This document shows, one piece after another, positions 2,250 through 25,029 of a stretch of 64,000 nt of DNA; positions within the stretch are counted from its first letter, which is position 1, and every line of letters begins with the position of its first letter. This DNA is from Candidatus Poribacteria bacterium (GTDB lineage: Bacteria > Poribacteria > WGA-4E > WGA-3G): positions 384,001 to 448,000 of the forward strand of contig CBDBFU010000014.1 of assembly GCA_965205025.1 (NCBI GenBank). Reading direction: 5' to 3'. Made by a program: the position numbers and the translations under genes. The notes beneath the pieces were generated by a model. The model did no database searches. It worked only from the letters and a program-made list of their open reading frames with translations, and was not told the origin of the DNA.

Positions 2250-2725
2250 ACTGGGCATGTGTGCACGAAAACAATCAACTTTCTCTGCTAATCTCCTTGT
2301 GTCCATCCCTTAGCTTCCCTAGCTCCAGCAAGTTGTTTACCAAATGATATATCTGGTGGATCTCCGTTTTCTGACGGATCTTCCTCAGTAAATAAATCGG
2401 TATGTTGTACTGCATAATTCTTGATAAATTTTAATATTCTGGGTGTAGCAATAAACCATTCTCCTTCAGCACGGAATGCACCAAACTGCGAATGAATTCG
2501 TGATTCTTCTCTGGATGCTTCATCCATTGTATCACAAGGAATGACTCCCATGTCCCATAATTGAGCTTCATTTCCTGTCTGTAGAGTTTTTTGCCGTTTT
2601 AGAGTGGTGTGGGGTTTTGAAAGATTTGCGATAGTTCGTCCAATTTTAACAAAATCTGGTTGCTTATCACCGAAATTGCTTTTTGCAAAAAAATAGACTA
2701 AATAAAGTTAATTTTCATTAGGCAT
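2250..2725 (-). pseudogene. T5orf172/MUG113-type GIY-YIG protein with C-terminal XRE-HTH, inactivated
   Basis: ATG at 2725, TAA at codon 6, then VYFF..FVKIGRT..LQTGN..EESRIHSQF..GEWF. The HTH (FGKQLAGAREAKGWTQGD-LAEKV) is broken by a frameshift near 2290. Confidence 0.7.
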
Positions 2726-2910
2726 GATTAATAATTCCTATGAGGGTTGTCTTCATTAAACCATGTTGGGTAATCCTTAGACATTATAACGGGTCTATTA
2801 AGTAAATGTCAATTCTTCAATATATGTAGGGTGTGTAAAGTAATTGTCACTTTTACTTAACACCAATGAAATCTCAAGTCCAATTTATCCAGTCAGAATT
2901 TCGAGATTTT

Positions 2911-3275
2911 CAGCTTATTCTTTACTACTATAATTTTGATAATTCTATTTAAGGGAAACTGAGAATCTAATGATAAGTCTATTTTGTCGAGTTTTCTATA
3001 TCAAAAATACCGTACTCCAGCGGAGTACTATGTCTATAGAAAACAATATCGGAACAATCTAGCACTCCAGCGGAGTGCTATGTGCCAATACACTTCGTAT
3101 GAAAAACATATAAGTACTTAATACACACTTAAGTTATATGATAATTAACGGATGTGATTCACGGAGGATTGCTATACTTAAAATTATAAACCCTTATAGA
3201 GTAAGGGTTCGTAAAATTGCTCCGTGAAGGTTTCCGTGAAAATGCCATCATCTCAAAACGATAAATATTAACACT
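2911..3275 (+). repeat. About 365-bp direct repeat, copy 1 (copy 2 at 4256-4619)
   Basis: Near-identical sequence at an offset of about 1345 bp, starting cagcttattctttactactataattttgataattctattt. Confidence 0.9.
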
Positions 3276-4255
3276 TTTTCCATAAGACTTAAAAAAATTG
3301 AAGAAAATATAAACTTCTAACAACTAACACACATATATCACAATAACATAAAATAAATTAAATATATTTGTCAAAATGCAAATCAAATGATACAATACTA
3401 TATCGTTCACTAATTATAAACTAAAACCAATACATTACTTGAAAGATATGAAATATTGTTTATACCGTGAAAGTGTAACTCTCTTCTAATTATTTTGGCT
3501 AATTATTTACGCTTCTAAACTTTATGCCAAATTCAACCAAATCCACTATCTGGGAAATAAGAAAATCCATGTTAGAATTACAACGAAAACATTCAGAATT
3601 ATCACCTCATAAGCAGACACAGAGGAAAATCAATCCGAATTCAACCGAATATTTTTTTAGTTTTTCAAATTTTAAAATTTTACACCAATTCATCAAATCC
3701 TTTGTTATCCCAACCCCCAACAGGGTTCTCGGCTCATTTGAAAAATCATTTCTTAAAAAGCAACTAAAAAAACTTGAAAAACTAAAAAAACTTGAAAAAC
3801 TAAAAATAGACCGACTTCAAATCATAGAATTCGGGTTTCCCTGTCCGTTGGTTCAAAATATAGCAAATTGCACGTACAAAGAATCCTCCAAATCTATGAT
3901 TTATGAGATATGTTCCAATATCTTGTCAAAATGGATGGATAAAAAACTTCACATTCAAAAAATCCAAAATCAATGGATCAAAAGAAAAGTAAAAGACGCA
4001 AAATTCATCCCCACTTTCATAATTGGTGCAAATTCTTGTAACCTTAAAAAAAAATGGCTTTAAACCCAGTGTAGTACTAACGGGAGAGGGGTTTTATCAA
4101 TGTCACACCATGTGACAAAAAGTGTAACTTTATTCAACATATAAATAATTAATATATTACTATTGTGAATAACTGAAAAACTAACAACTATAAACTAATA
4201 ACCCTATGATCCGTGATATTCATGCCAAAAACTTTACACACCCTTTTGAGAATTA

Positions 4256-4619
4256 CAGCTTATTCTTTACTACTATAATTTTGATAATTCTATTTTAGAG
4301 AAACTGAGAATCTAATGATAAGTCTATTTTTTGGAGTTTTCTATACCAAAAATACCGTACTCCAGCGGAGTACTATATCTATAGAAAACAATATCGGAAC
4401 AATCTAGCACTCCAGCGGAGTGCTATGTCCCAATATACTTCGTATGAAAAACATATAAGTACTTAATACACACTTAAGTTATAGTGTAATTAACGAATGT
4501 GATTCACGGAGAATTGGTATCATTAAATTATAAACCCTTATAGAACAAGGGTTCGTAGAATTGCTCCGTGAAGGTTTCCGTGAAAGTGCAACCATTTCAA
4601 AACGATAAATTTTAACACT
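4256..4619 (+). repeat. About 365-bp direct repeat, copy 2
   Basis: Matches 2911-3275. Confidence 0.9.
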
Positions 4620-4755
4620 ACACAAAGACAACCTGATTTTCATGCCAAAAACTTTACACACCCTATGTCAGTCTATGACTTGACTTTTCGTAGTAGTCAT
4701 GGTAATTTGCTGGATATCCCTATTACATTATGTGGGTAACTATAATAAGTATACC

Positions 4756-5076
4756 CATAGGCGTCAATTTAGTAAGATTATACCATTTTCAATTGATAGA
4801 TTTACATTAAGACTTATCTGATACAGGGATTATCATATACATATATGAGTCCCGTAGGGACGAAATGTCTATAGAAAACGTGTTTATCCACTATCTTGAG
4901 TCCCGGGGAATGCCTAAATGGCATTCATACCGTTGATTTGATAGGGACAGAATGTCTATAGGAATCGTTATCACCAATACACCAAGCCCCAGCGGGGCGA
5001 AAGGTGTGTAGAAAACGTACAAATCCTAAACTAAGCCCCAGCGGGGCGAAAGGTGTATCCTAAATTGACGCTAATG
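4756..5076. mobile_element. 321-bp MITE with IS4/IS231-like ends and a 20-bp target-site duplication
   Basis: Ends CATAGGCGTCAATTTAG and CTAAATTGACGCTAATG. Perfect flanking direct repeat GTAACTATAATAAGTATACC at 4736-4755 and 5077-5096. Confidence 0.8.
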
Positions 5077-5151
5077 GTAACTATAATAAGTATACCCAAT
5101 GCATTGTTAATCCCATCAGAATTTGAATAATTGAAAATCTAAAATACAATT

Positions 5152-6093
5152 ATGTCACAAAATACAGCCTTTACCTATCACCCCGACTACCTAAACCACG
5201 ACACTGGTGCCGGCCATCCCGAACGTCCGGATAGACTTCGATCAGGTTTAGCAGCACTAAAAGACAGTGATGTATGGGACACACTTCTACAAATTGAACC
5301 AACTCCAGCCAGTATAGACCAAATTGCTTATGCACATAATCAAGGATATAGCGACTATATCAAACAATACTGTGAAGCGGAGATTCCACTAACCTATGAC
5401 ACAATTGTCGTTCATGAATCCTTTGATATTGCCCTACTTTCTACCGGAGGGGTTTTATCTATAGCAGAAGCAGTTGTAACCAACAAAGCGAAGAACGGGT
5501 TTGCAATGGGGCGACCACCTGGTCATCATGCGACACCGGGACAGAGTATGGGGTTTTGTCTGTTTAACAATATCGCGATTACTGCACGGTATCTTCAACG
5601 TGAACATGGTATTGGTAAAGTGGCAATTGTGGATTGGGATGTACATCACGGAAACGGAACGCAGGATATATTCTATGAAGACGAAACGGTTTTCTTCTTC
5701 TCTATCCACCAATCTCCACTTTATCCTGGAACAGGATCAAAGAGTGATAAAGGTGGAGGTAAAGCATACGGAACAACACTGAACGTTCCTGTACCACCAG
5801 GCAGTGGTGATGACGATTACATTACCATATTTCAGGATATACTGATACCTACCTTACGTGATTATGCGCCTGAAATTATCCTTATATCCGCAGGATTTGA
5901 TGCGCACTTTCTTGACCCATTAGGTAATATAAATATCACCGCTGAAGGATTTGCCACATTGACAGATATGATTATGGAGATTGCAGAAGAAACTGCTTCT
6001 GGCAGAATCGTATCAGCATTAGAGGGTGGTTATAGTTTAGAAGGTCTTTCTGGATCTATCGTGGCGCATGTTGAACGGTTGAGTAAAGTGTGA
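5152..6093 (+). CDS. Histone deacetylase family protein (HDAC/AcuC-like amidohydrolase)
   Basis: HPERPDRL, RPPGHHA, GFCLFNN, DWDVHHGNGTQ, SAGFDAH..DP, LEGGY motifs. Confidence 0.95.
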   Translation: MSQNTAFTYHPDYLNHDTGAGHPERPDRLRSGLAALKDSDVWDTLLQIEPTPASIDQIAYAHNQGYSDYIKQYCEAEIPLTYDTIVVHESFDIALLSTGGVLSIAEAVVTNKAKNGFAMGRPPGHHATPGQSMGFCLFNNIAITARYLQREHGIGKVAIVDWDVHHGNGTQDIFYEDETVFFFSIHQSPLYPGTGSKSDKGGGKAYGTTLNVPVPPGSGDDDYITIFQDILIPTLRDYAPEIILISAGFDAHFLDPLGNINITAEGFATLTDMIMEIAEETASGRIVSALEGGYSLEGLSGSIVAHVERLSKV

Positions 6094-6126: not shown

Positions 6127-7737
6127 TTAAGTCTGAAATTCCGAAGGGACTTCTTGCACCACAGGAATGACATAACTCCGAAGCGTAAGACCTGACACCG
6201 TCTCTGTTTCTACAATTGTCTCTGGGTTCTGACGATGATCAAAGACGATGTAATAGCCTTCCGCCGCATCCTCCGATTTCAGATAAGCGGCGAGTTGTTG
6301 TTTCCCTGCTGCATAGCGGCGTAGTCCTTCCCAAATCTTGGTTTCAACGATATATTTCTGCTGGTTGTGGAGAATAATCAGGTCAAGTCTGCCACGCCCA
6401 GTTGGAACTTCAAGGAACATCGTTCCCCCTACGGTGCGGACGAATTGGTCAAGATAGGCAGAAAGCAGGTATTGACCAACAAACTCATGTGGGGTTTCTG
6501 GCACTTGAAGGATCTTGTAACCTGCACGCCTAATGAAGTTCTTGAAATTTTCAATGAGTAGCCCCATCTCAATCTGCCCATCGGAAGTCAGATACTCAAA
6601 AAAATCTCGACTCGTATTTTCAGGAAAGTAGTCACATTCCAGTCCGTTGATCAAAGGTTGGAACGTCTGCATGATGCAGTGTTGATAAATCGGATTGACT
6701 ATTTCACACATACCCTCAGCATCTTTGGCAATAACGCCATAAGTGGCGAGTACACTGATGATTTCGTCGCGATAAACGAAAGGAACACCTTTGTCATAAG
6801 AGACGATTTTCATTAGAAGGGTTTCAAAACGGCGGCTTTTTTTGATGTTGGTCGTCAAATGTGATAGGTTGGTATTATCTTCCTCAAGGAGTTGTGTGAG
6901 TGCTTGTGCAAAGTGCCCCATCCTAATCGTCTCAGTTTTGGGAATATCCAATTCTGTGGACAGAATCTGTCCGAACCGGTTAACGAGGAACGGCTGTCCA
7001 GCAGTCTGTCTGTGAATAGATTCAATCACTTCGGGGGCAAAGGGTTGCCCGACTTCATCGGTATACTGCCCAAAGAGGTCGCGCACCTGTTCCACAGTAA
7101 AGTTCGGCAGATGAAATTCGTCTTGGATGTTGAACGGTGAGATAGACCGGTCGTAGTTAAGTTGTGTGATGTTCTTGACTCCTACAATACCAACACTATA
7201 CAGACATCGCTCCACTTCAAAATGGTAGATGTGGCGGAGTGTATGAAGAAAATCACTGACAGCGGCTGGCGGGATGCCATCAAACTCATCAATGATAAAG
7301 ACAACTTTCTGTTCACCGTATTCAACTGCCAGTAAACTCGCGAAATCCTCAAAAAATTCTAACATTGAACCGTGATGATTGAAGTGGGTGTTATCTAAGA
7401 GTTGGGTCAATGCATCAGAAAGTCCGTGACCACGTTTCTGGAAAACGCTTTCAATGTGCTTGCGAATCCTTTTGTAAAGCAGCTCGTAAAAATCTGGAAC
7501 GGAGAAGTTTTTATAGATATCAAAACTGAGTTGAATCGGAAAATAGGTTGGATTTTCTGCGGTGAGCGTAGCGAGTGCCAATCGGAAAAACGTTGTCTTA
7601 CCGGTCTGGCGAGGGGCAAATAGGACGATGTACCGTCCATCCTTCACGCGGTTGATGAAATCTTTAACCTCCTCAGTGCGGGGGACGACATAATGTCGGT
7701 CAGGTCGTACCGAACCTTGGGTACCAAACGTTCTCAT
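6127..7737 (-). CDS. AAA-like ATPase with C-terminal PD-(D/E)XK nuclease domain
   Basis: Walker A APRQTGKT, Walker B FIIDEFD, SPFNI motif, C-terminal E..GRGRLDL..IVETK. Confidence 0.8.
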   Translation of the reverse strand: MRTFGTQGSVRPDRHYVVPRTEEVKDFINRVKDGRYIVLFAPRQTGKTTFFRLALATLTAENPTYFPIQLSFDIYKNFSVPDFYELLYKRIRKHIESVFQKRGHGLSDALTQLLDNTHFNHHGSMLEFFEDFASLLAVEYGEQKVVFIIDEFDGIPPAAVSDFLHTLRHIYHFEVERCLYSVGIVGVKNITQLNYDRSISPFNIQDEFHLPNFTVEQVRDLFGQYTDEVGQPFAPEVIESIHRQTAGQPFLVNRFGQILSTELDIPKTETIRMGHFAQALTQLLEEDNTNLSHLTTNIKKSRRFETLLMKIVSYDKGVPFVYRDEIISVLATYGVIAKDAEGMCEIVNPIYQHCIMQTFQPLINGLECDYFPENTSRDFFEYLTSDGQIEMGLLIENFKNFIRRAGYKILQVPETPHEFVGQYLLSAYLDQFVRTVGGTMFLEVPTGRGRLDLIILHNQQKYIVETKIWEGLRRYAAGKQQLAAYLKSEDAAEGYYIVFDHRQNPETIVETETVSGLTLRSYVIPVVQEVPSEFQT

Positions 7738-8291: not shown

Positions 8292-8537
8292 ATTTTAACT
8301 TGTAAGAATGCACAATGTGTGTTATTCTGAAAATAGTGTTACTTGGCAAATCTGCCCGTGTAGGTAAAAGTGATACGTTTCGGACGTTGATTTTTTGGTT
8401 GTAACAATATATTTATGTTGCCACCAAGGGTCGCTCCTACAGAAGAAGAACACCTATATTCACTTTTAGTATACATAGGTTTGCTTTGCAAGTCCACTCA
8501 TTTTTAAAACAGAGATTGAAATTCCTGGAGAATCAAT

Positions 8538-10205
8538 ATGCCAACAAATTTAAGTGATTCTAACGACAACATTAATAGAATATTGGGGGTTGATATACAA
8601 TATGAGGTACCGCTTTATCAAAGGCGTTACGTCTGGAATAAGGCAAATTGGGAAACACTTTTGGAAAATATCTTTGACCTGGCAAAGTTAAAACCTCTTG
8701 CACGAGGAGAAGGACATTTTACAGGTCCTATTGTAACCCGTAGCATTGCTGGAGCACAAAACAAATTTGAGGTGATTGATGGACAACAACGACTCACAAC
8801 GTTTGAAATTATTTTTTGTGTTATCAGAGATCTATGTATTGGACTTGAAGATCTGAGAGATAATGCTATAATAACGGACGCAGAGCGACACTTGTTGTCT
8901 GGTTCTAACCATAAACTCATACCAACAATTTACGACAGAAAGGCATTCAAGAAAATAGTTAAGCGAAGATATGGCACAAAGATCCATAAAGCATTTGATA
9001 TAAATAAGAACCTTTTAGATGATAATGGGGTAAAGCGTCTGAAAGAGGACGCTGTAGAAAAAGTTAGATTACAGGTGTTTGGTAAAAAAAAGGTTAGCAC
9101 CAGCATCCTTAATGCTTACCGTTATTTTTATGAGGAGATTAGGCATCATGTCCAAAAAGATTCCAACGAGGTATTTAACCTAATTAGTGTCATTAAGAAT
9201 GATTTTAAGATTATTCACCTATCACTCGGTGAGACCGAGCAAGCGGAAAAGGTCTTTGAATCAATCAATGCAACAGGTAGAATGCTTAAAAATTTCGATT
9301 ATCTCAGAAACAATCTGTTTCTACGGGCTAGAAATTTGGGAGAAGATCCTATAGAAAAGGTGCTATTTAGAGATAAATATTATGAAAATTCAGACTATTG
9401 GCGTTTTGAAAATGAATCTAATTACTGGGATACCGATAAATTAGAGTCATTTCTACGGACTTTTCTCATGGCAACATGGAATCCCAGATGTTTCGAGGAG
9501 AAAAATGCCCAACCATTTGGTGAATATCAAAAGTATAGCAAAAAATTAGAGAGGACGCATGCGGCAGATAAACAGAGAATTCCTTATGAATTCCAGCAAT
9601 TAAGTGGATGGGCAAAATCTTATCGGGAGTTGTTGGAAGATGAACCAAAATTTGATGCTTACGTGAAATTATGTAAAGACGTTGATCTTTCTCGTGACTT
9701 GGATTCGTTGATATTATTCGTAAAGCATAATCATCCAAATCAACTTGATAAAGTTATTGAAATTTTGGAGTCTTATACGGTGAGGCGAATGTTTGTTCTC
9801 GAAAAAACAGCATATACTCTGGCAGAGATAACAAAGGAAAGTTATGATAACATAGTCGGCTTTCTTTTTGAAGTAGTGACAAAAAAAGATGTCACCTTCA
9901 GTACTGAAGCATTCGCAAAATTTCTCCAAAAACATGAGTGGCCAGATGAAGACAAGGTTATAAAGGCCTTTGAACAAGCAGACTCTAAGAACTTTAATTT
10001 TATTACTTATATGTTCCATGAAATAGTAAAATGGGATAAAGAAAGATCTTCACTGTATGGACAGGAACCTTTAAGTTGGGGCGAACATGGGGATCTTTCA
10101 AGAAAGATTGAGGAACTTTTAAAAGATGATTCCGATAAACTTATGGAAATTTTTAATGAAATATGGCCGCCTCCCTTCTACTTTACGAATAATTTTGAAT
10201 CCTAA
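8538..10205 (+). CDS. DUF262 (GmrS/SspE-like ParB-fold NTPase) domain protein
   Basis: VPLYQRRYVW, HFTGPIV, VIDGQQRLTT and VFESINATG..L..FDYLRN motifs. No recognisable HNH at the C-terminus. Confidence 0.85.
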   Translation: MPTNLSDSNDNINRILGVDIQYEVPLYQRRYVWNKANWETLLENIFDLAKLKPLARGEGHFTGPIVTRSIAGAQNKFEVIDGQQRLTTFEIIFCVIRDLCIGLEDLRDNAIITDAERHLLSGSNHKLIPTIYDRKAFKKIVKRRYGTKIHKAFDINKNLLDDNGVKRLKEDAVEKVRLQVFGKKKVSTSILNAYRYFYEEIRHHVQKDSNEVFNLISVIKNDFKIIHLSLGETEQAEKVFESINATGRMLKNFDYLRNNLFLRARNLGEDPIEKVLFRDKYYENSDYWRFENESNYWDTDKLESFLRTFLMATWNPRCFEEKNAQPFGEYQKYSKKLERTHAADKQRIPYEFQQLSGWAKSYRELLEDEPKFDAYVKLCKDVDLSRDLDSLILFVKHNHPNQLDKVIEILESYTVRRMFVLEKTAYTLAEITKESYDNIVGFLFEVVTKKDVTFSTEAFAKFLQKHEWPDEDKVIKAFEQADSKNFNFITYMFHEIVKWDKERSSLYGQEPLSWGEHGDLSRKIEELLKDDSDKLMEIFNEIWPPPFYFTNNFES

Positions 10206-10300
10206 ACCAATAGGTTGTTGAGTTGTGTTAGATTTAATATTAGGTAAGGAATCAGGGAACTCTAACTAAAAAATTGAATTAACCTCAAGGATATTTAGGG

Positions 10301-13300
10301 ATGAATGCAACCCCAGAAAGCTTAAATAGTTTGTTCAGTATTGACGTTCAATATAAGGTACCACTTTATCAACGGCGTTATGTCTGGGAGAATAGTGATT
10401 GGAGCGAGCTCTGGAAAGATATCCTCGATCAAGAAAAAATAGATTCTTTTAAAAACGCAAGACATTTCACTGGTCCCATTGTTACACGTCTCATTAAAAG
10501 ACAACAAAAAAGGTTTGAAGTGATTGATGGACAACAACGCTTGATTACCTTCCAAATTATCTTTTGTGTTATTAGAGATTTATGTGAGTTATTTGAATTT
10601 TCTGGTTCAGAAACAGAAAAAAAAGCAAAAGAACATATAGAAAATGACGAAACTGCCAGAAAAGATTTCCAAAGTAGAGACCCTAATTATGAAGACCCTG
10701 ACAAGAGACTTCCTGATCCCACCTATAAATTCATCCCGACAGATTACGATAAAACAGCATTTGATGCAATAATAGAAAAGTTATATGGAAAAAAAATCAA
10801 CGAAACATTAAAAAAAAATGACAACAGTCCGGAAGAGGATATACTTAAAGAAGCTAGATCACAACAATTTGGTGAAGAAACGGTTAGTGACAATATCCTC
10901 AATGCTTATGATTATTTCTATAAGAAAATTAAGAACTATATTGAAGGAGACACCCAGGAAGACAACCATGTTGAAGGGGTCGAGGAAAAGCTTGAAAAAG
11001 AGAAAAAAATATCCAACTTACTTGATACTATCAAGTCCAACTTTGAACTCGTTCAAATAACGCCTGGCGACTCGCAGCAAGCGGAAGAAATATTTGAATC
11101 AGTCAATGCAACAGGAAGGAAACTTTCAGAGTTTGATTATCTGAGAAACAATCTTTTTCTACGTGCTCGTGACCAAAGTGATGAATTCTATAAAGAGTAC
11201 TGGATCTTTGATAATGATCCTGATTCCTATGATTGGAATGAAGACACACTGGAATCATTTTTTCAGGCGTTTCTTATGGCAAAATTGGGGCCTAATGCCC
11301 TTAACAACAATGTGAAATTATTTGATTTATACCAAGATAACTTAGTTTCCGAGCACAACCTTGCAGAAGAGTTTGAGGAATTAAGAAATCATGCAGAGGT
11401 TTATAGAGAAATGGACGATCCGACTTCAGAGTTTGGAGTCCGAATGCAATTTTATAAAGACCTTAGTACTTTTTATACTGAGGAAGATGAAGAAAGTTAC
11501 AATCCAGTTAAAGGTTTAGAATATAACTATTATGTAACAGTTATTCGATCATTCATTATGTATTTACAACAGAAGTTAAAAAGGCCTAAAGATGAAATCC
11601 TTAGCGTTTTTAAAATTCTTGAATCTTATGTAGCGCGTTGCCTCTTTGCTGATACTGTTACAAATTATGATTCCTATCAATCAATTAAAAGCTTCTTTTC
11701 TGATTTGTTCTCAGAACAAGACGACGTATTTTTTTCAGGAGATATAATAGAATATCTTAAAAGCAAAAAAAGCAAAAGAGAATGGATATCTAATACTATG
11801 ATTAAAAGTTGGTTTCGTGGGGAGAAATATCTTATTAATTGGCACGGATCACTTAGAGAAGATCGACAGTTTTCATTACGTTATATCTTTTATAGAATCG
11901 AAAATTGGAAGAGAAAGCATGCTGGGGAAAATATGTTAAGTTTTGAAGAATTTCCACCTGATAAGGTTTCTGTGCGTACATTTATACAATTAACATCCGA
12001 TGAAGAGGCTTGGAGAAGTCTCGGAAATCTAACTTTTTATTGGAAGGATGATCACGATCAGGAAATTAATACCTTGAATAGCGCAAATGCGTTTCTGCAG
12101 GAAGGACGTAATAACATATTATTATTGAACAGCGAAATATATAGTGAACCAGAATCAAAATGGGAACGAGGAAAAATTAAGGGTAGAGAACAAAAATTAG
12201 TATCTGCTTTCTGCAATATATGGCAGCCTGACCCTTGGGAAGATATTGAAGATATTAAGACTGAGTATCCGCTCCTTGAAGAAGTGGAAGGTACCGTTGT
12301 TAATATTAAAGAAGATGGCGTGTATGTTCAATTAGAGCTTGGTATCAAAGGATATGTCCCTGTCAATGAAATATCGTGGACTCGTCGCAAAATTATTCCT
12401 TCGAAGCATTTCGAACAAGGTGAGACAGTTAGAGCCAAGGTAATAAATGAAGTTGTAAAAGAAGAACGGGAAATTAGGCTAAGCACTAGACAAACGCAAC
12501 CTAAACCTTGGAAAGATTTTGATGCCAAGTATCCGGTTGGTAAAGAAGTGGAAGGTACAGTTATAGAAATAGACAAATCTGGGATAACGCTTGAGTTAGA
12601 AGAGGGAGTTGAAGGAGTGATCGCGAAAGAAGAGATAGCATGGACTGCTCACAGTAATGTTGATCCCAACGACTATGTTAATGATGGCGATCAAATTAAG
12701 TCCAAAATACTTAAAATTTCAAAGGATCAAGGAATCCTGCACCTAAGCATCAAGCAAATGCAACCTAACCCTTGGAAAGATATTGATGCAAGGTATCCAG
12801 TTGGTAAAGAAGTGGAAGGTACAGTTATAGAAATAAACAAATCCGGGATAACTCTTGAGTTAGAACAAGGGATTGGAGGAGTGATCGCGAAAGAAGAGAT
12901 AGCATGGACTGCTCACAGTAATGTTGACCCCAACGACTATGTAAGTAAAGGCGATTGGATTAAAGCCAAAATATTTGAAATTTCAAAGGATCAAGGAATC
13001 CTGCACCTAAGCATCAAGCAAACGCAACCTAACCCTTGGAAAGATATTGATGTAAGGTATCCGGTTGGTAAAGAAGTGGAAGGTACAGTTATAGAAATAA
13101 ACAAATCCGGGATAACGCTTGAATTAGAACAAGGGATTGGAGGAAGGGTTGATGCTTCAGAAATAGCGTGGACTCTCGACAAAATTATTCCTTCGGAGCA
13201 TTTCAAAAAAGATGATACAGTTATAGCCAAAATACTTAAAGTTTCAGAGACAAAACAAGAAATTTTGCTAAGCATCAAGCAAACACAGTCCAATAATCCT

Positions 13301-14110
13301 TGGAAAGATATTGACACGAGATATTTGGTCGGTGAAGAAGTTCAGGGTACTGTTGTTGAAATCGACCGATATGGTACGACTTTTCAATTGGAACCAGGAG
13401 TTCAGGGATTTATTAATCGTGATGAGATGGTGTGGACCAATTCTAGCAAGAACATTGTGCCATCAAAGATTGTAAATGAAGGTGAGGAGATTAAAGCCAA
13501 AATACTTGAAATTTCAGCCGAGAAAGAATATCTTCAGCTAAGTATCAAACAGACCCAGCCAAATCCTTGGATAAAATTTACCCAAAACAATAAAGAAGGC
13601 ACTGTTGTGCAGGGTAAAATTTACGAGTTTACTTCATTCGGGGCCTTCGCTGAATTAGAAAAAGGAATTGTGGGTTTAATTCGCAATTCTGACTTGACAG
13701 ATAGGTGGATCGAAAAACCGGAGGAAATTGTATCAAAAGGAGAAGAATTAGACCTGAAAGTGATTAAAATAGATCAAAAAAAGAGGCAAATTTATTTGAG
13801 CTTGAAGGCAGTTTGGGCGAAAATTGCTGAGAAATACAAAGTTGGTTCTGTTGTCCAGGGAAAAATTGTCAAACTCAGTACTTGTGATGCTTTAGTTGAA
13901 TTAGAAGAAGGAATTGAGGTGCTCATTGAAAAGCATGAACTTGCAGGACAGCTTGAAAAACTGTCAGTTGGAACCGAATTAGACGTGCAAGTGATTAAGG
14001 TGGATCAATACAAAAGACAAATTCGTTTGAAAGAGGTAACCCCTACTCTTTTAGAGACTCGCCTCAAAGAAGCAATAGAGAAAAAAAATACTGACAAATC
14101 CGAGGGTTAA
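10301..14110 (+). CDS. DUF262 domain + degenerate DUF1524-like region + seven S1 (OB-fold) domains
   Basis: Same DUF262 motifs (VIDGQQRLIT, IFESVNATG). SLGNLT motif near 12020. From about 12230, seven bS1-type repeats of the form PW..YPVGKEVEGTV..LEEG..G..EI.W..KIL.I..I.LSIKQ. Confidence 0.85.
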   Translation: MNATPESLNSLFSIDVQYKVPLYQRRYVWENSDWSELWKDILDQEKIDSFKNARHFTGPIVTRLIKRQQKRFEVIDGQQRLITFQIIFCVIRDLCELFEFSGSETEKKAKEHIENDETARKDFQSRDPNYEDPDKRLPDPTYKFIPTDYDKTAFDAIIEKLYGKKINETLKKNDNSPEEDILKEARSQQFGEETVSDNILNAYDYFYKKIKNYIEGDTQEDNHVEGVEEKLEKEKKISNLLDTIKSNFELVQITPGDSQQAEEIFESVNATGRKLSEFDYLRNNLFLRARDQSDEFYKEYWIFDNDPDSYDWNEDTLESFFQAFLMAKLGPNALNNNVKLFDLYQDNLVSEHNLAEEFEELRNHAEVYREMDDPTSEFGVRMQFYKDLSTFYTEEDEESYNPVKGLEYNYYVTVIRSFIMYLQQKLKRPKDEILSVFKILESYVARCLFADTVTNYDSYQSIKSFFSDLFSEQDDVFFSGDIIEYLKSKKSKREWISNTMIKSWFRGEKYLINWHGSLREDRQFSLRYIFYRIENWKRKHAGENMLSFEEFPPDKVSVRTFIQLTSDEEAWRSLGNLTFYWKDDHDQEINTLNSANAFLQEGRNNILLLNSEIYSEPESKWERGKIKGREQKLVSAFCNIWQPDPWEDIEDIKTEYPLLEEVEGTVVNIKEDGVYVQLELGIKGYVPVNEISWTRRKIIPSKHFEQGETVRAKVINEVVKEEREIRLSTRQTQPKPWKDFDAKYPVGKEVEGTVIEIDKSGITLELEEGVEGVIAKEEIAWTAHSNVDPNDYVNDGDQIKSKILKISKDQGILHLSIKQMQPNPWKDIDARYPVGKEVEGTVIEINKSGITLELEQGIGGVIAKEEIAWTAHSNVDPNDYVSKGDWIKAKIFEISKDQGILHLSIKQTQPNPWKDIDVRYPVGKEVEGTVIEINKSGITLELEQGIGGRVDASEIAWTLDKIIPSEHFKKDDTVIAKILKVSETKQEILLSIKQTQSNNPWKDIDTRYLVGEEVQGTVVEIDRYGTTFQLEPGVQGFINRDEMVWTNSSKNIVPSKIVNEGEEIKAKILEISAEKEYLQLSIKQTQPNPWIKFTQNNKEGTVVQGKIYEFTSFGAFAELEKGIVGLIRNSDLTDRWIEKPEEIVSKGEELDLKVIKIDQKKRQIYLSLKAVWAKIAEKYKVGSVVQGKIVKLSTCDALVELEEGIEVLIEKHELAGQLEKLSVGTELDVQVIKVDQYKRQIRLKEVTPTLLETRLKEAIEKKNTDKSEG
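12506..13297 (+). repeat. 264-bp tandem coding repeat (S1 domains 2-4)
   Basis: CCTTGGAAAGAT recurs at 12506, 12770, 13034 and 13298 (period 264), with near-identical DNA between units. Confidence 0.9.
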
Positions 14111-14134: not shown

Positions 14135-14848
14135 TCAACAATATGTAGCAACTTTCTTCCCAACATGAATCGCTACAATCCCAAAGGTCTTGCGATAAAA
14201 TTCTACATCCGTTAAACCATTCTGTTCCATAACCGATTTCAATGCATCACAATCTGGAAATTGAAGGACAGACCTTGGTAGATATCCGTATGCATCATTT
14301 TCGTTACGGGAGATTAAGTTTCCAATGAGGGGTAAGATCTTCGTAAAATAGAAGTAGTAAAGTCTCCGAAACAACGGATTCTCGGGTTGTGAAAACTCTA
14401 AGATAACGACCCTGCCACCGGGTGCAGCAACACGCGTCATCTCGCGTATCCCTAACTCTAAATCTGAAACGTTCCGAATACCGAAACCGACAGAGACAAC
14501 GTCAAAAGTATTGTCTAAAAACGGAAGTGAGAGAGTATCTGCTGTCAGAAAGTTTGTGTTACGGTGCGACGCATTCCTTTCCACCTTCTGATTTCCTATA
14601 ACGAGCATTTCAAAGCAGAAATCTGAGCCGATAACGAAACCCTCTGTCCCAATTTTATCCGCATAAGCAAGAGCAAGTTCACCTGTGCCAGTACAAACAT
14701 CTAACACCTTACTCATCGGTTCAACGTCGCTTGCATTGGCAGTTTCGTGTCGCCACATCTTGTCACGCTTAAGGCTTAGCAGCGAGTTAAGAAAGTCGTA
14801 ATAACGAGCAATGGCAGAAAATAGGTTTCTTATTTGGTGTGCCTGCAT
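14135..14848 (-). CDS. menG: Demethylmenaquinone/ubiquinone methyltransferase (MenG/UbiE)
   Basis: LFSAIARYYDFLNSLLS, VLDVCTGTG, LPFLDNTFD, GFGIRNV, PGGRVVILEFS. Likely start is MQAHQ at 14848, just after the repaired pheT stop. Confidence 0.9.
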   Translation of the reverse strand: MQAHQIRNLFSAIARYYDFLNSLLSLKRDKMWRHETANASDVEPMSKVLDVCTGTGELALAYADKIGTEGFVIGSDFCFEMLVIGNQKVERNASHRNTNFLTADTLSLPFLDNTFDVVSVGFGIRNVSDLELGIREMTRVAAPGGRVVILEFSQPENPLFRRLYYFYFTKILPLIGNLISRNENDAYGYLPRSVLQFPDCDALKSVMEQNGLTDVEFYRKTFGIVAIHVGKKVATYC

Positions 14849-14852
14849 AACC

Positions 14853-17283
14853 CTATATCCGTAATTCCGCACCCAATTCCTGCTTAAGACTTTGGACAAC
14901 CTTATCGTGAAGGGCATTTACTGCCTTGTCTGTCAAAGTTTCGGTTGCAGAATGATACGTGATAGCGTAGGAGAGACTCTTCTTGCCTTCCGGGGACCTG
15001 TTCACCTTCATAAAAATCGAATAAGCGGACCGATTCGACTAATTCGCCACCTATTGTCTGGATAAGTCTTGTCGGTGTCTCTGACAATATCTCTTCATCT
15101 ACGACAATCGTGAGATCGCGTGCAACCTTAGAGTAGATTGAGAACGGTTTAAAACATTTGACAAACGCTGAGACCTCCACTAACTTTTCAAAGTCAAGGT
15201 CAAAAAGATACACTGGATACGGCAAACCTTGGAAAACAATATCCCTCTCATACACCGAATTCAAGTGATAATTCTCAAGCAATTCCGGGTGCACTCTGCC
15301 GAAAATACCAATGCGATGATTTCCTAAAACTGCTTCTGCGTTTTGCTCCGGATGGAAAGTTGGATCCTGCGTTTTCTTAAGTGTATAATTGTCAATACCA
15401 CATATTTCAAGGATACCCTCAACAACACCTTTGATGTCAAAAAAATCCGGAGGTCTATACGAATTACCATAGACACCGCCACCCAATACTCCGGCGAAGA
15501 TTCCAGCGACTCGTTCCTGTTCTTTTTCTTGGATAAACACCTTAGACATCTCAAAGAATGTGATATTATCTATTTGGTGATTGAGGTTGTACTGGGCATT
15601 TTCGAGTAAGCTCGGTAACAGTGTTGTACGGAGCACAGACATTTCCGGACTCAGTGGATTTCGCAATTGCAAAGCATCACGAAGCGGATCATTTGCATTC
15701 AATCGAATCTTGTCGAAGCAGTTGGGATCACAAAAACTATAGTTAACAACTTCCATCATACCGGCAGCGAGGAGAAAATGCTTTATACGCTTGCGAACCT
15801 CTGTGCTCGGATTCGGGGTAGGTACAGGAATGTCACCTTTGGGCAATGTTGTTGGGATTTTGTCATACCCATAGACCCGTGCAATCTCCTCAATTAGATC
15901 TATTTCACGTGATATATCTGGCCTGAATGATGGAACAGTCACCTGAAATATATTATCTCCTTGTTGGATAATCCCGAATCCTAAATTCATTAGTATTCTT
16001 GCAATTTCAGGTGTATCAAGTTTAGTACCAAGTATGAAATTGATACGATCGGTCCGGAGTTGTACCTTTAGAAGTTCACTCTTGCCAGGATAAACATCGA
16101 CAACACCTTTACATGAAAAGCCACCTGCTATTTCAACTATTAATTGCGTTGCACGATCAAGGGCAGTGATTACTCCCTCAGGATCCACTTCCCTCTCAAA
16201 TCTATAAGATGCTTCTGTATGCATTCCCAATTTCTTTGAAGTTGCTCGGATACTTGATGCAGAAAAATTCGCACTTTCCAAAAGCACATCACATGTAGAC
16301 TCAGTTATTTCTGAATCATATCCTCCCATAACACCTGCGAGTGCCACAGATTTATCGGCATCGGCAATAACCAACATATCAGGTGTAAGTTCGCGTTCTT
16401 CTTCATCAAGTGTAATTAATTTCTCTCCTTCTGATGCACGTCGTACGACAATTCGGTTTTCAGCAAGTTTGTTGTAATCAAAAGCATGAAGTGGTTGTCC
16501 ATATTCCATCATAACAAAATTAGTCGCATCTACAATATTATTTATTACACCAATCCCTATTGATTCAAGTCTCTTTTTCAACCATTCTGGGGATTCACCT
16601 ATTTTTACACCTTGAATTACACGAGCGGTATAACGAGTACACAAATCAGGTGCTTCAATTGTTACTGATGTCTTACTATTAACATCTATGTTATTTTCTT
16701 TGATGGTAATATTTGGCAATCTTAATGTATTCCCTGTTTCAGCTCTAATTTCCCGACAAACACCTATCATACTTAAACAGTCTGGACGATTCGGCGTTAT
16801 TTCCAATTCAAAGATTACATCATCTAAATCTAATGCTTCAGTTATAGACTTACCAATAGGAAAATCTTTGGATAACTCCATTAATCCTGATGCTTCGTCA
16901 GAAATACCCAATTCCTTTTCTGAACATAACATTCCATGGGATACTTCACCACGCAATTTCGCACGTTTAATGGTGATTCCAGTCGGTAATTCAGTATCGA
17001 TTGTAGCTACAGGTGCAAACATCCCTTCAGAGACATTCGGGGCACCACATACAATCTGTAAATCATCGGTATCACCTATATCAACCTGACAAAGAACAAG
17101 TTTATCTGCATTGGGATGAGGGCGAATAGAATTCACCTTTCCTACTACAACATCATCTAAACCTGTACCTAATTCTGTCATAGATTCAACTTCAATACCC
17201 AACATGGTCAATCTATCAGCAAGCTCAGTTGATGATAAATCAAAATCTATGTAGGTCTTCAACCAATTTAAGCTAACCTTCAT
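14853..17283 (-). CDS. pheT: Phenylalanine--tRNA ligase beta subunit, with an apparent +1 frameshift near the 3' end
   Basis: MKVSLNWLK, HPNADKL, CGAPN, ITPNRPD, SYRFER, DLIEEIARVYGY. Removing one base at about 14991-14995 restores VPEGKKSLSYAITY..ETLTD..ELGAELRI* (stop at 14853). Confidence 0.92.
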
Positions 17284-23587: not shown

Positions 23588-24158
23588 GAATGTAAACACA
23601 CCTTACCAACAGACGTTTTTGATTAAAATATTGGTAATTGTTCTTCTGAGTTCAATTTCAGTTATTGGATGTAATCGAGAAGATGAAGTAACTATAACAG
23701 ACGATACGGCACCAATTCAACAATTTGAGACTTTTACCACTCAACATAAAGAGGCTGGTGTTTTAAAATGGGAATTGGTTGGGAAGTCATCAGAATTCCA
23801 TGGTACTTTAGTTACGGTAGTGTCACCAGAAGTTGAGATTTATGAAGATGGGAAGATATCTATTACATTGACCAGTCAAATTGGACATTACTATACCGAA
23901 GGGAAAAATAAAGATAATTTATATCTGGTGGGTGATGTAGTTGGTATAAACGAGAATGGTAAGTTATTTACAGAAAAACTACAATGGAGAAATAGGGACG
24001 GTACATTATATTCACCAACTGAAGTAAAAATAGTACGCGGCGATTCAACATGGTATGGAAATAAAATGGTAGGTAATCCAAATCTCGAAACTATCACAAT
24101 GTCTAATAACAGATTTGAACTCTATCCAAAAGACGAGGATATAAATGAAAAGCAGTAA
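23487..24158 (+). CDS. lptC: LPS export protein LptC (real start probably downstream of 23587)
   Basis: N-terminal hydrophobic segment followed by a beta-jellyroll-like region (LYLVGDV..KLFTEKLQW..). Lies between lpxL and lptA-lptB. Confidence 0.75.
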   Translation: MRILRNSLKLLRLIYENILSNGFGCMNVGKHSHRNVNTPYQQTFLIKILVIVLLSSISVIGCNREDEVTITDDTAPIQQFETFTTQHKEAGVLKWELVGKSSEFHGTLVTVVSPEVEIYEDGKISITLTSQIGHYYTEGKNKDNLYLVGDVVGINENGKLFTEKLQWRNRDGTLYSPTEVKIVRGDSTWYGNKMVGNPNLETITMSNNRFELYPKDEDINEKQ

Positions 24159-25029
24159 TTCTACGGCATTATTAAATTTAAAAACAATTTCAAACATAAT
24201 CAACTTTGTATGTTTAAAGATTGCTATTATTCTGGCATTAATCTGTATATTGTCTATTTCTGTTGAAGCTGAGGATTCACCTGTTCCTGATAAGAATGAG
24301 GAAGAAACTGTAAAACCTACTTCCAATGAAAATGATACCCAGTTGGAATCTACTAAAGAGGTAATTACTGGTACATCTGATAGGATGGAAAGAGATCAGA
24401 AAAATGGGATTACAATCCTCATCGGTAATGCCAAGACTGTTCGAAAGAATGAAGAGGACGTCGAAATAGGATTCTTAAATGCAGATAAAATCACACTAAA
24501 AAGTGATCCTGAATCTGGTGAGACTATTGAAATCATCGCTGAAGGAAATGTGGAGATACGGGATCAGGATATGTTTGCTACCTGTGAACATGCTACGATG
24601 AATAATCTTAAAAATATCATTATTCTAAAAGATAAGGTAATCGTTACACAGAATAAAGACAAACTTGAAACAAAATTATTTACTTATAATCGTACTACCG
24701 GTAAGCAAACCGGTGTAGGTGATGTAAAATTTAAAGTCTCAATTACACAAGCCAGTCCAATACAAGAGGAAAACTTAGAAGAACAGAATGATAATTCAGA
24801 TGATGAATCAACTTCAAATGATTCTCAATCTGATAAACCTGATGAAAATCAGAAGAATTCTAAAGACATTCCTGATGAATCTGAAAAACAGGATACATCT
24901 ACTGAAAGTAATACCGAAGCAGATAATAATGATAATACTGAAGAAGATGAATCTGATGAAGAAGAGAAAACGGATGAAGAAGAGAAAACGGATGAAGAGT
25001 CAATTAGCGATGAAACCTCAGAGGATTAA
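24145..25029 (+). CDS. lptA: LptA/OstA family protein with long acidic tail
   Basis: Signal peptide, ADKI..IIAEGNVEI..ATCEHA OstA-like pattern, D/E-rich C-terminus; upstream of lptB. Confidence 0.7.
   Translation: MKSSNSTALLNLKTISNIINFVCLKIAIILALICILSISVEAEDSPVPDKNEEETVKPTSNENDTQLESTKEVITGTSDRMERDQKNGITILIGNAKTVRKNEEDVEIGFLNADKITLKSDPESGETIEIIAEGNVEIRDQDMFATCEHATMNNLKNIIILKDKVIVTQNKDKLETKLFTYNRTTGKQTGVGDVKFKVSITQASPIQEENLEEQNDNSDDESTSNDSQSDKPDENQKNSKDIPDESEKQDTSTESNTEADNNDNTEEDESDEEEKTDEEEKTDEESISDETSED

Follow-up and report, generated by a model that had tools for sequence, protein, structure and literature searches.

A 64,000-nucleotide stretch of a Candidatus Poribacteria genome (assembly GCA_965205025.1, contig CBDBFU010000014.1, positions 384,001 to 448,000 of the forward strand; hereafter the window) carries two adjacent, co-oriented genes, A and B, encoding paralogous DUF262 proteins, the second of which continues in frame into an array of S1 domains. 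A first-pass annotation made from the letters of the window had proposed the pair as a candidate defence system. Both open reading frames (ORFs) lie exactly where it had placed them (Table 1), and the two translations contain YQRRYVW, HFTGPIVTR, DGQQR and FES.NATG..FDYLRNNLFLRAR. The Pfam model GmrSD_N/DUF262 (PF03235) matches residues 19-261 of A (E 6.6e-33) and also B (E 4e-30), and the S1 model (PF00575, E 5.3e-90) matches seven stretches of B, as had been proposed. A begins with an NTPase head of the ParB/Srx type, continues into a helical middle domain and ends in a short C-terminal helical part; it has no HNH hairpin. In PADLOC, the two proteins match the Orf5 model (A E 9e-40, B E 2e-41) as well as the HEC-06 (E 2e-34), mREase_IV (E 9e-15) and SspE models. 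Together with the fold matches described below, this supports descent from the GmrSD/SspE/DndI defence family. Below, genomes of the phylum are designated by G, G000 being the window's own, and loci by L.

Since no terminator-like site was found in the spacer between the genes, A and B are probably co-transcribed. Counts from a promoter and terminator scan were not above those in shuffled sequence, and an Rfam scan of window positions 1-24000 returned no RNA family.

Table 1. Coordinates of the gene pair, its domains and the borders of the locus in the window, and content of the corresponding interval in related complete genomes (HDAC, histone deacetylase; TRF, Tandem Repeats Finder; HMM, hidden Markov model).
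Feature	Position	Strand	Description or basis
Gene A	8538..10205	+	ORF, 555 aa; tail-less DUF262 protein
A-B spacer	10206..10300	+	95 nt
Gene B	10301..14110	+	ORF, 1269 aa; GmrSD-like body (residues 1-644) in frame with seven S1 domains
B DUF262 NTPase head, residues 13-286	10337..11158	+	Pfam; YQRRYVW (I), DGQQR (II), FESVNATG (III)
B helical middle domain, ~residues 287-499	11159..11797	+	AlphaFold2 model; equivalent of SspE-M / 'ParBDB'
B degenerate DUF1524/HNH-like domain, ~residues 500-644	11798..12232	+	Alignment with relatives; no PF07510 match
S1 array, seven units	12233..14050	+	Pfam, 7 stretches; own HMM, 7 domains
S1 unit B1	12233-12505	+	S1 array
S1 unit B2	12506-12769	+	S1 array
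S1 unit B3	12770-13033	+	S1 array
S1 unit B4	13034-13297	+	S1 array
S1 unit B5	13298-13564	+	S1 array
S1 unit B6	13565-13828	+	S1 array
S1 unit B7	13829-14050	+	S1 array
Tandem DNA repeat	12479..13314	+	TRF; period 264 nt (one S1 unit), 2.5-3.2 copies, 91-84% matches
C-terminal tail LETRLKEAIEKKNTDKSEG	14051..14107	+	Alignment columns 1801-1910; conserved among S1-tailed homologues
Left hotspot border, histone-deacetylase-family gene	5152..6093	+	Pfam; 73-77% identical in five related genomes
Right hotspot border, ubiE-type methyltransferase, then pheT, pheS	14135..14917	-	Pfam; synteny
HDAC-ubiE interval, G101			Empty
HDAC-ubiE interval, G094 and G091			FGE-sulfatase gene
HDAC-ubiE interval, G078			FGE-sulfatase gene and TnpB
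HDAC-ubiE interval, G154			A+B and a DDE-transposase fragment
HDAC-ubiE interval, window			A+B and an AAA_35 gene

A chimeric assembly at the junction, an artefact that the first-pass annotation had itself raised, is ruled out by contigs from two studies and by the same fusion in other genomes. In one study, a short-read contig from each of two runs covers positions 8300-12558 with zero differences and spans the junction at ~12233; in a second study, a sponge metagenome, a contig corresponding to 11051-12418 with 102 differences spans it in a related strain. The bridging contigs fragment within 12558-13087, where three S1 units are 84-91% identical in DNA. Because they break in these near-identical units, the copy number of units 2-4 is that of the original assembly alone.

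A restriction-enzyme fold that has lost its HNH site

The AlphaFold2 model of B residues 1-650 (predicted local distance difference test, pLDDT, 84; predicted TM-score 0.81) aligns with DndI over 523 residues (Z 18.7), with the whole chain of SspE (Z 17.1) and with BrxU (Z 9.4), and residues 270-648 align with the SspE C-terminal-domain entry 7dri (Z 16.8, root-mean-square deviation 5.7). The three parts of the DndI/SspE fold, a head, a helical domain and a loop-type HNH domain, are all present in this model. The model of A (pLDDT 77) is all-helical after residue 283 and matches DndI over 445 aligned residues (Z 17.0) and SspE (Z 15.4). DndI and SspE are thus the best structural matches across the 650-residue body of B and for A. 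Features in common are an NTPase head with DGQQR, a middle domain that is helical and binds DNA, and a loop-type HNH finger with the GNL Asn. DUF262 motifs I-III, as defined in PMC12065111 (QRxxxW, DGxQR and FxxxN), are kept by A and B and do not vary among the 18 family members aligned. When solved structures were searched by sequence, B 1-650 as the only query returned nothing relevant, and a profile search returned, besides S1 proteins, only the DUF262 head of entries 9jfl, 20yv and 20yw, the last two of which bear the title 'DUF262 domain-containing protein'.

The catalytic end of this fold is altered in both proteins. The GmrSD_C/DUF1524 model (PF07510) matches neither A nor B, whether in the protein scan or in a scan of the genome that does match two other loci of the same genome. 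As the first-pass annotation had read it, A has no nuclease tail: in A and its close relatives, the whole beta-hairpin region is absent. In B, the SLGNLT motif is kept (residues 573-578, nt 12017-12034), with S573, G575, N576 and T578 at near-invariant positions in the family, and the beta hairpin is kept at 554-557 and 577-580. The (D/E)H..P motif and a ~50-residue insert are lost, the insert being deleted in the clade of B as well; here, too, the earlier reading (LGNL retained, EH..P gone) was accurate. Upstream partners beyond the close relatives of A have 'ER' where 'EH' is expected. Standalone relatives, found in Nitrosomonas, a gammaproteobacterium and several single Poribacteria genes, keep '...LEH(I/V)(L/M)P...', ~50 residues and '...IGNLT...N..L.N'. 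In distant tailed relatives the His is changed to R or Y, and among all aligned tailed relatives it is absent or replaced (R, Y, T) except in L016_1, a protein with a cold-shock tail that is the sole one with EH. No conserved His was found near the SLGNLT of B in the alignment.

To our knowledge, all characterised GmrSD-like proteins (GmrSD, BrxU, SspE, DndI, HEC-06) cut DNA, and their HNH site is essential. GmrSD, BrxU and HEC-06 share the PF03235 head with QRxxxW, DGxQR and FxxxN and the PADLOC family with A and B; they differ in the (D/E)H..P motif, EHICP in HEC-06 and DHIYP in BrxU, which A and B lack. In the report on these enzymes, the E471A/H472A substitutions in HEC-06 and alanine at the D and H of the BrxU motif each abolish defence (bioRxiv 10.1101/2024.01.29.577857), and the GNL Asn of DndI (N541) is described as needed for nicking (PMC11662687). 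A and B are thus predicted not to be HNH nucleases by the canonical mechanism; B, in particular, would not be a functional HNH nickase because the His is missing, although the GNL Asn (N576) is kept.

DndI and SspE are described as single-chain nickases that depend both on their HNH site and on an operon for DNA modification that accompanies them (PMC11662687). Here, instead, there are two paralogous subunits, of which B lacks the His and carries the seven S1 domains. In the window's own genome (95.5% complete), no match was found to TIGR03183, which we take to be DndC; sspABCD was not searched for. Elsewhere in this genome (G000:C33:30930-32545), a GmrSD gene of canonical layout, with PF03235 and PF07510 (E 4e-30), is broken by a single in-frame TGA.

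Captured S1 domains in a paired, probably mobile family

At the body/S1 junction, the closing helix of the family (...FCNIWQ) passes directly into an S1 inter-domain linker, PDPWEDI... (PDPWEDIEDIKTEY). The window's own RpsA is encoded elsewhere in the genome, as the first-pass annotation had wished to see confirmed, by a separate gene (L090:3596-6064, minus strand, = G000:C9; 822 aa, six S1 domains) that adjoins metK and ahcY. Overall identity between the S1 array and this RpsA is 32-35%. Unit by unit, domain 4 is the best match for B1-B5 (scores 171-214) and domain 6 for B6 and B7 (230 and 146), whereas scores against domains 1-2 are only 38-65. Within the array, B2 and B3 are identical at 75 of 88 residues, with a ratio of nonsynonymous to synonymous divergence (dN/dS) of 0.37, and the tandem DNA repeat (Table 1) marks a recent duplication or gene conversion of B2-B4. 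The S1 tail is best read as an old capture of S1 units of the mRNA-binding type that was amplified internally. The array shares its S1 units and PxPW linkers with bS1 (rpsA), from whose domains these appear to come, and perhaps the C-terminal tail as well: TLLETRLKEAIEKK at the end of B resembles MGALLKQEMGKNN near the C-terminus of the own RpsA by eye, a likeness that lends weak support to the bS1-like tail proposed earlier. It differs from bS1 in having no domain-1/2-like units, in being fused to a 644-residue GmrSD-like body and in having 1-9 units among homologues. That B could be the genome's real rpsA is ruled out by the separate six-domain gene and by this absence of domain-1/2-like units. 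As to that gene, its product is extended on both sides of the S1 domains, by ~180 strongly acidic residues at the N-terminus and by ~125 residues at the C-terminus that are enriched in D, E, S and T, and rpsA ORFs of 680-1130 aa across the phylum suggest that such extensions vary.

The fusion recurs. Among the 120 matches listed from the protein database, 14 combine PF03235 with PF00575, one of them a 1231-aa protein on a 5.5-Mb contig that is 67% identical to B. S1-fused open frames occur in at least six of 176 genomes of the phylum (G000, G154, G095 = L011, G144, G136 = L014 and G083 = L021), and the B orthologue in G154 is full-length and 67-70% identical. In all six visible contexts of S1-tailed genes (window, G154, G095, G144, G136 and G083), a tail-less DUF262 gene lies directly upstream. 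With our own HMM, the numbers of S1 units in the 15 of 121 proteins that have them are 1, 3, 3, 3, 4, 4, 4, 5, 5, 6, 6, 7, 7, 8 and 9. Other tails occur as well: among 120 proteins listed, 69 have a cold-shock domain (CSD, PF00313), several of them also Hfq (PF17209), and 15 have S1; in L021, S1 and CSD occur within one protein. There are also CSD-tailed pairs (L016, L029), untailed pairs (L012, L013) and a tailed singleton (L030). In a quick maximum-likelihood tree with SH-aLRT support, upstream partners cluster together and downstream partners likewise, in three lineages, and the CSD-tailed P0013 falls inside the S1-tailed clade of B. The S1 fusion thus belongs, as the first-pass annotation had not noticed, to a wider family of pairs whose members exchange OB/Sm tails (S1, cold-shock domain or Hfq), and forms one of its branches. 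Outside the clade, all 59 loci (L031-L089, none titled Poribacteria) consist of a single untailed gene of ~500-950 aa. The database source names of the relatives read only 'DUF262 domain-containing protein'. In the ESM Atlas, where the clusters searched have at least 50 members, ordinary GmrSD clusters were matched (score 0.84) and none had S1, which has no bearing on rarity.

Three of these loci have features of their own. At L014:793-10277 (= G136:C14), four DUF262 genes (576, 805, 600 and 895 aa, the last S1-tailed) occupy the same hotspot as in the window, and a 181-aa HDAC fragment between the second and third indicates that two pairs were stacked there and the border gene broken. At L011:2787-6282 (= G095:C276), two overlapping frames of 744 and 431 aa make up the B orthologue, the break falling within the S1 repeats; the cause is either a frameshift or an assembly error in the repeat, the short-read contig being 7.3 kb long with 6.6x coverage. 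At L016, a Uma2-family gene (4527-5288) and a fused nucleotidyltransferase-HepT gene of the MNT-HEPN type (12069-13025) flank the CSD-tailed DUF262 pair of another Poribacteria genome; of the contexts examined, only this one has such genes near the pair.

In the window, A and B occupy a variable interval between the HDAC and ubiE genes (Table 1), whose right border is syntenic in L011, L014, G154, G078, G091, G094 and G101. GC content is 0.34-0.37 over 8-12 kb and 0.41-0.45 in the flanks. Between the window and G154, approximate NG86 estimates of synonymous divergence (dS) are 0.46 for B (body 0.61, tail 0.36) and 1.6 for A, while synonymous sites of ubiE, HDAC and pheT are saturated and exceed what the NG86 correction can handle. 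Because dS is far below that of the flanks, an exchange of the cassette later than the divergence of the two genomes is suggested. The cassette behaves as an accessory element that moves horizontally. A has a dN/dS of 0.26 and B one of 0.37-0.41, compared with 0.12 for ubiE (against L011), and the ratio stays below 1 in the head, body and tail of B, as expected of proteins that are under constraint while evolving faster than ubiE. An isolated fusion under relaxed selection, which the first-pass annotation had foreseen as a way for its proposal to fail, is not what is found: the frames are intact, dN/dS is 0.26-0.41 and at least five other genomes carry the fusion.

The opposite-strand gene at 6127-7737 (-) encodes a 536-aa AAA_35/AAA_22 ATPase, divergent from A across an 800-nt spacer, with a C-terminus that looks PD-(D/E)XK-like by eye (...RLDLII...IVETKIW...). 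As a third component of the system it is ruled out, since neither G154 nor as much of L011 as is visible has it next to the pair. Positions 2500-4500 have the lowest GC content of the first 24 kb (30-31%); the orphan ORF at 3524-4063 within them is rich in lysine and matches no Pfam model. At 24145-25029 (+), a 294-aa ORF has a signal-like N-terminus and a C-terminal half that is long, very acidic and of low complexity (runs of D, E, S, T and N).

A proposed conflict module without a nuclease, and competing explanations

The reading that we favour, with a confidence that falls slightly short of even, is of a conflict module derived from GmrSD in which the cutting of DNA has given way to the binding of single-stranded nucleic acid. 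It is favoured because the proteins descend from defence enzymes, because the cassette behaves as accessory and mobile, and because tails and unit numbers turn over fast; the most likely function, we think, lies in conflicts with phages or other mobile elements. The structural statements on A and B are well supported, and the function is not. On this reading, the pair would be a self-contained, mobile module that arose from single-chain restriction enzymes of the GmrSD/DndI/SspE type and gave up DNA cleavage. Both proteins retain intact DUF262 heads and helical, nucleic-acid-binding middle domains; A has deleted the HNH finger, and B retains the finger scaffold with its Asn and has lost the general-base His. 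B has also captured bS1 domains of the mRNA-binding type, five domain-4-like and two domain-6-like, plus the tail, and expanded them by internal duplication. The two proteins may act as a hetero-oligomer, as suggested by the dimers formed by solved relatives; a complex prediction for A 1-470 with B 1-492, both given as alignments, scored 0.37 against 0.35 for one control, a difference that speaks neither way on binding. NTP binding and hydrolysis at the DGQQR sites could gate the engagement of nucleic acid, and through its S1 array the module could hold single-stranded RNA, or ssDNA, at many points at once. Its output would be to sequester or block foreign transcripts or replication intermediates, or to recruit a host nuclease, rather than to cut.

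The first-pass annotation had gone further, to a two-component system retargeted from modified DNA to RNA, ribosomes or S1-binding phage proteins. The pair itself is real, recurrent and not chimeric, and the earlier reading is partly supported. Domains 1-2 of bS1 anchor the protein to the ribosome, and because no unit of the array resembles them, ribosomes are an unlikely target.

Several points weigh against a conflict module. With the HNH domain dead, A and B are left with no recognisable effector, and a defence role is predicted only; among the public runs listed, none with RNA holds the stretch. Housekeeping or metabolic genes flank the pair in the window, L021 and L029, with no conserved defence neighbours. 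By eye, B1, B5 and B6 keep aromatics at the usual RNA-contact strand and B2-B4 do not; because the canonical aromatic and His contacts are replaced there, RNA binding by B2-B4 is not assured. The genome count for the fusion is a lower bound, a further 195 matches lying outside those listed, the tree is a quick version, and the dS values, obtained by NG86 on AT-rich genes, are approximate. Finally, the three tail types (S1, CSD, Hfq) serve generally as RNA chaperones, and a regulatory role fits them as well.

This last point leads to the main rival, a regulator or RNA chaperone specific to the phylum, in which a DndB/ParB-like, NTP-gated DNA clamp would link a DNA site to nascent RNA, for instance in transcription-coupled regulation or nucleoid-RNA organisation. 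We hold it to be possible, at well under even probability. Neither protein has a nuclease site, S1, CSD and Hfq tails are classic RNA-chaperone domains, the neighbours are housekeeping or metabolic, and purifying selection is evident. Proteins with DUF262 plus a helical domain and no nuclease are known as regulators or sensors, such as DndB and NsnA (PMC12065111). A resembles both in its ParB-DUF262 head followed by a helical 'ParBDB'-type domain without DUF1524. However, NsnA (of the Menshen system) is followed by the ABC ATPase NsnB and the effector NsnC, and DndB lies in the dnd operon, whereas no ABC ATPase or NsnC-like gene was found beside A, whose neighbours are B downstream and the opposite-strand AAA_35 gene upstream. 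A phylum-specific regulator also sits uneasily with the patchy distribution (at least six of 176 genomes, with the hotspot empty or otherwise filled in relatives of the same genus), with the low GC content and the dS far below that of the flanks, which point to horizontal exchange, and with unit numbers and tail types that change fast, as in accessory conflict genes. No gene family recurs beside the pairs except the DUF262 genes and the syntenic ubiE, pheT, pheS and HDAC genes.

Two further explanations rank lower. The nuclease might still be active, either in the DUF262 ParB/Srx head or at a non-canonical site on the HNH scaffold, with the S1 domains only aiming it at single-stranded or transcribed nucleic acid. 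The near invariance of SLGNLT would fit, as would the requirement for the matching Asn, N541, in DndI (PMC11662687), the suggestion of Machnicka et al. (PMC4619093) that the GmrS/ParB-Srx domain may itself be a nuclease, and the E-R pair, rather than random residues, that replaces E-H in several sister clades. Yet the general-base His is absent or replaced in the aligned tailed relatives except L016_1, the ~50-residue insert is deleted in the clade of B, and there is neither a PF07510 match nor a conserved His nearby; we regard such an activity as improbable. More improbable still, and by now largely refuted, is that the pair has no function and is decaying, left over from the duplication of a type IV restriction gene and joined to rpsA-derived sequence by accident. 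The lost catalytic residues, the fairly high dN/dS of B (0.37-0.41) and the split S1 array of the L011 orthologue could be taken for decay, but a 3.8-kb frame remains open at 67-70% identity, dN/dS is below 1 in head, body and tail, the NTPase motifs are invariant and the pairing is kept in six of six contexts; the L011 split, located in a repeat on a 6.6x short-read contig, may itself be an assembly error.

For the conflict module, the closest conceptual precedent is the CoCoNuT branch of McrBC, a type IV lineage that gained cold-shock-like OB folds, in some cases with an inactivated nuclease, and that is predicted to target RNA (PMC11090510). The NTPases are unrelated, a McrB AAA+ GTPase there and ParB/Srx DUF262 here. 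CoCoNuT systems have coiled coils and HEPN or other nuclease effectors, and the accessible text of that report describes no S1 arrays and does not mention DUF262 (PMC11090510). General Pfam scans, run on the two proteins and on the genes around them, found no McrB, coiled-coil, McrC or HEPN domains, and no search aimed at CoCoNuT was made. A more specific version of the conflict reading is that the pair is a nuclease-free, NTP-gated, RNA-directed immune module, in which the S1 array, or CSD and Hfq in the sister proteins, would seize phage transcripts or ssDNA and block translation or replication. We consider this version doubtful at present; were it true, the pair would be the counterpart of CoCoNuT in the GmrSD family, acting via sequestration rather than cleavage.

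The first-pass annotation knew of no described DUF262-polyS1 fusion, and our literature searches agree. A full-text search for DUF262 with 'S1 domain' had no match, the matches for DUF262 with 'cold shock domain' concern another subject by title and abstract, and among the matches listed for Poribacteria with GmrSD or DUF262 none names Poribacteria. Among those listed for GmrSD with RNA-binding terms, the architecture is not described, supplementary files being outside the search. In the accessible part of the GmrSD survey of Machnicka et al. (2015), the extra domains named are DUF4268, DUF4357 and DNA_binding_1, and not S1 or CSD (PMC4619093). We found no published description of a DUF262-polyS1 fusion, which is a variant of the known GmrSD-type family.

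What emerges is a whole clade of paired GmrSD relatives in which the NTPase is kept, the nuclease is lost and different single-strand-binding tails have been acquired repeatedly. The family is expanded in Candidatus Poribacteria genomes, and one run with a related copy is a sponge metagenome. The pair, with A, B, the DGQQR motifs and the S1 array, is tractable for asking what a ParB-like NTPase cycle controls without a nuclease. If its role is truly in defence, an immune sensor would have been re-armed with a non-nucleolytic, RNA-directed output, and the mRNA-binding half of a core ribosomal protein would have been recruited into an accessory module.

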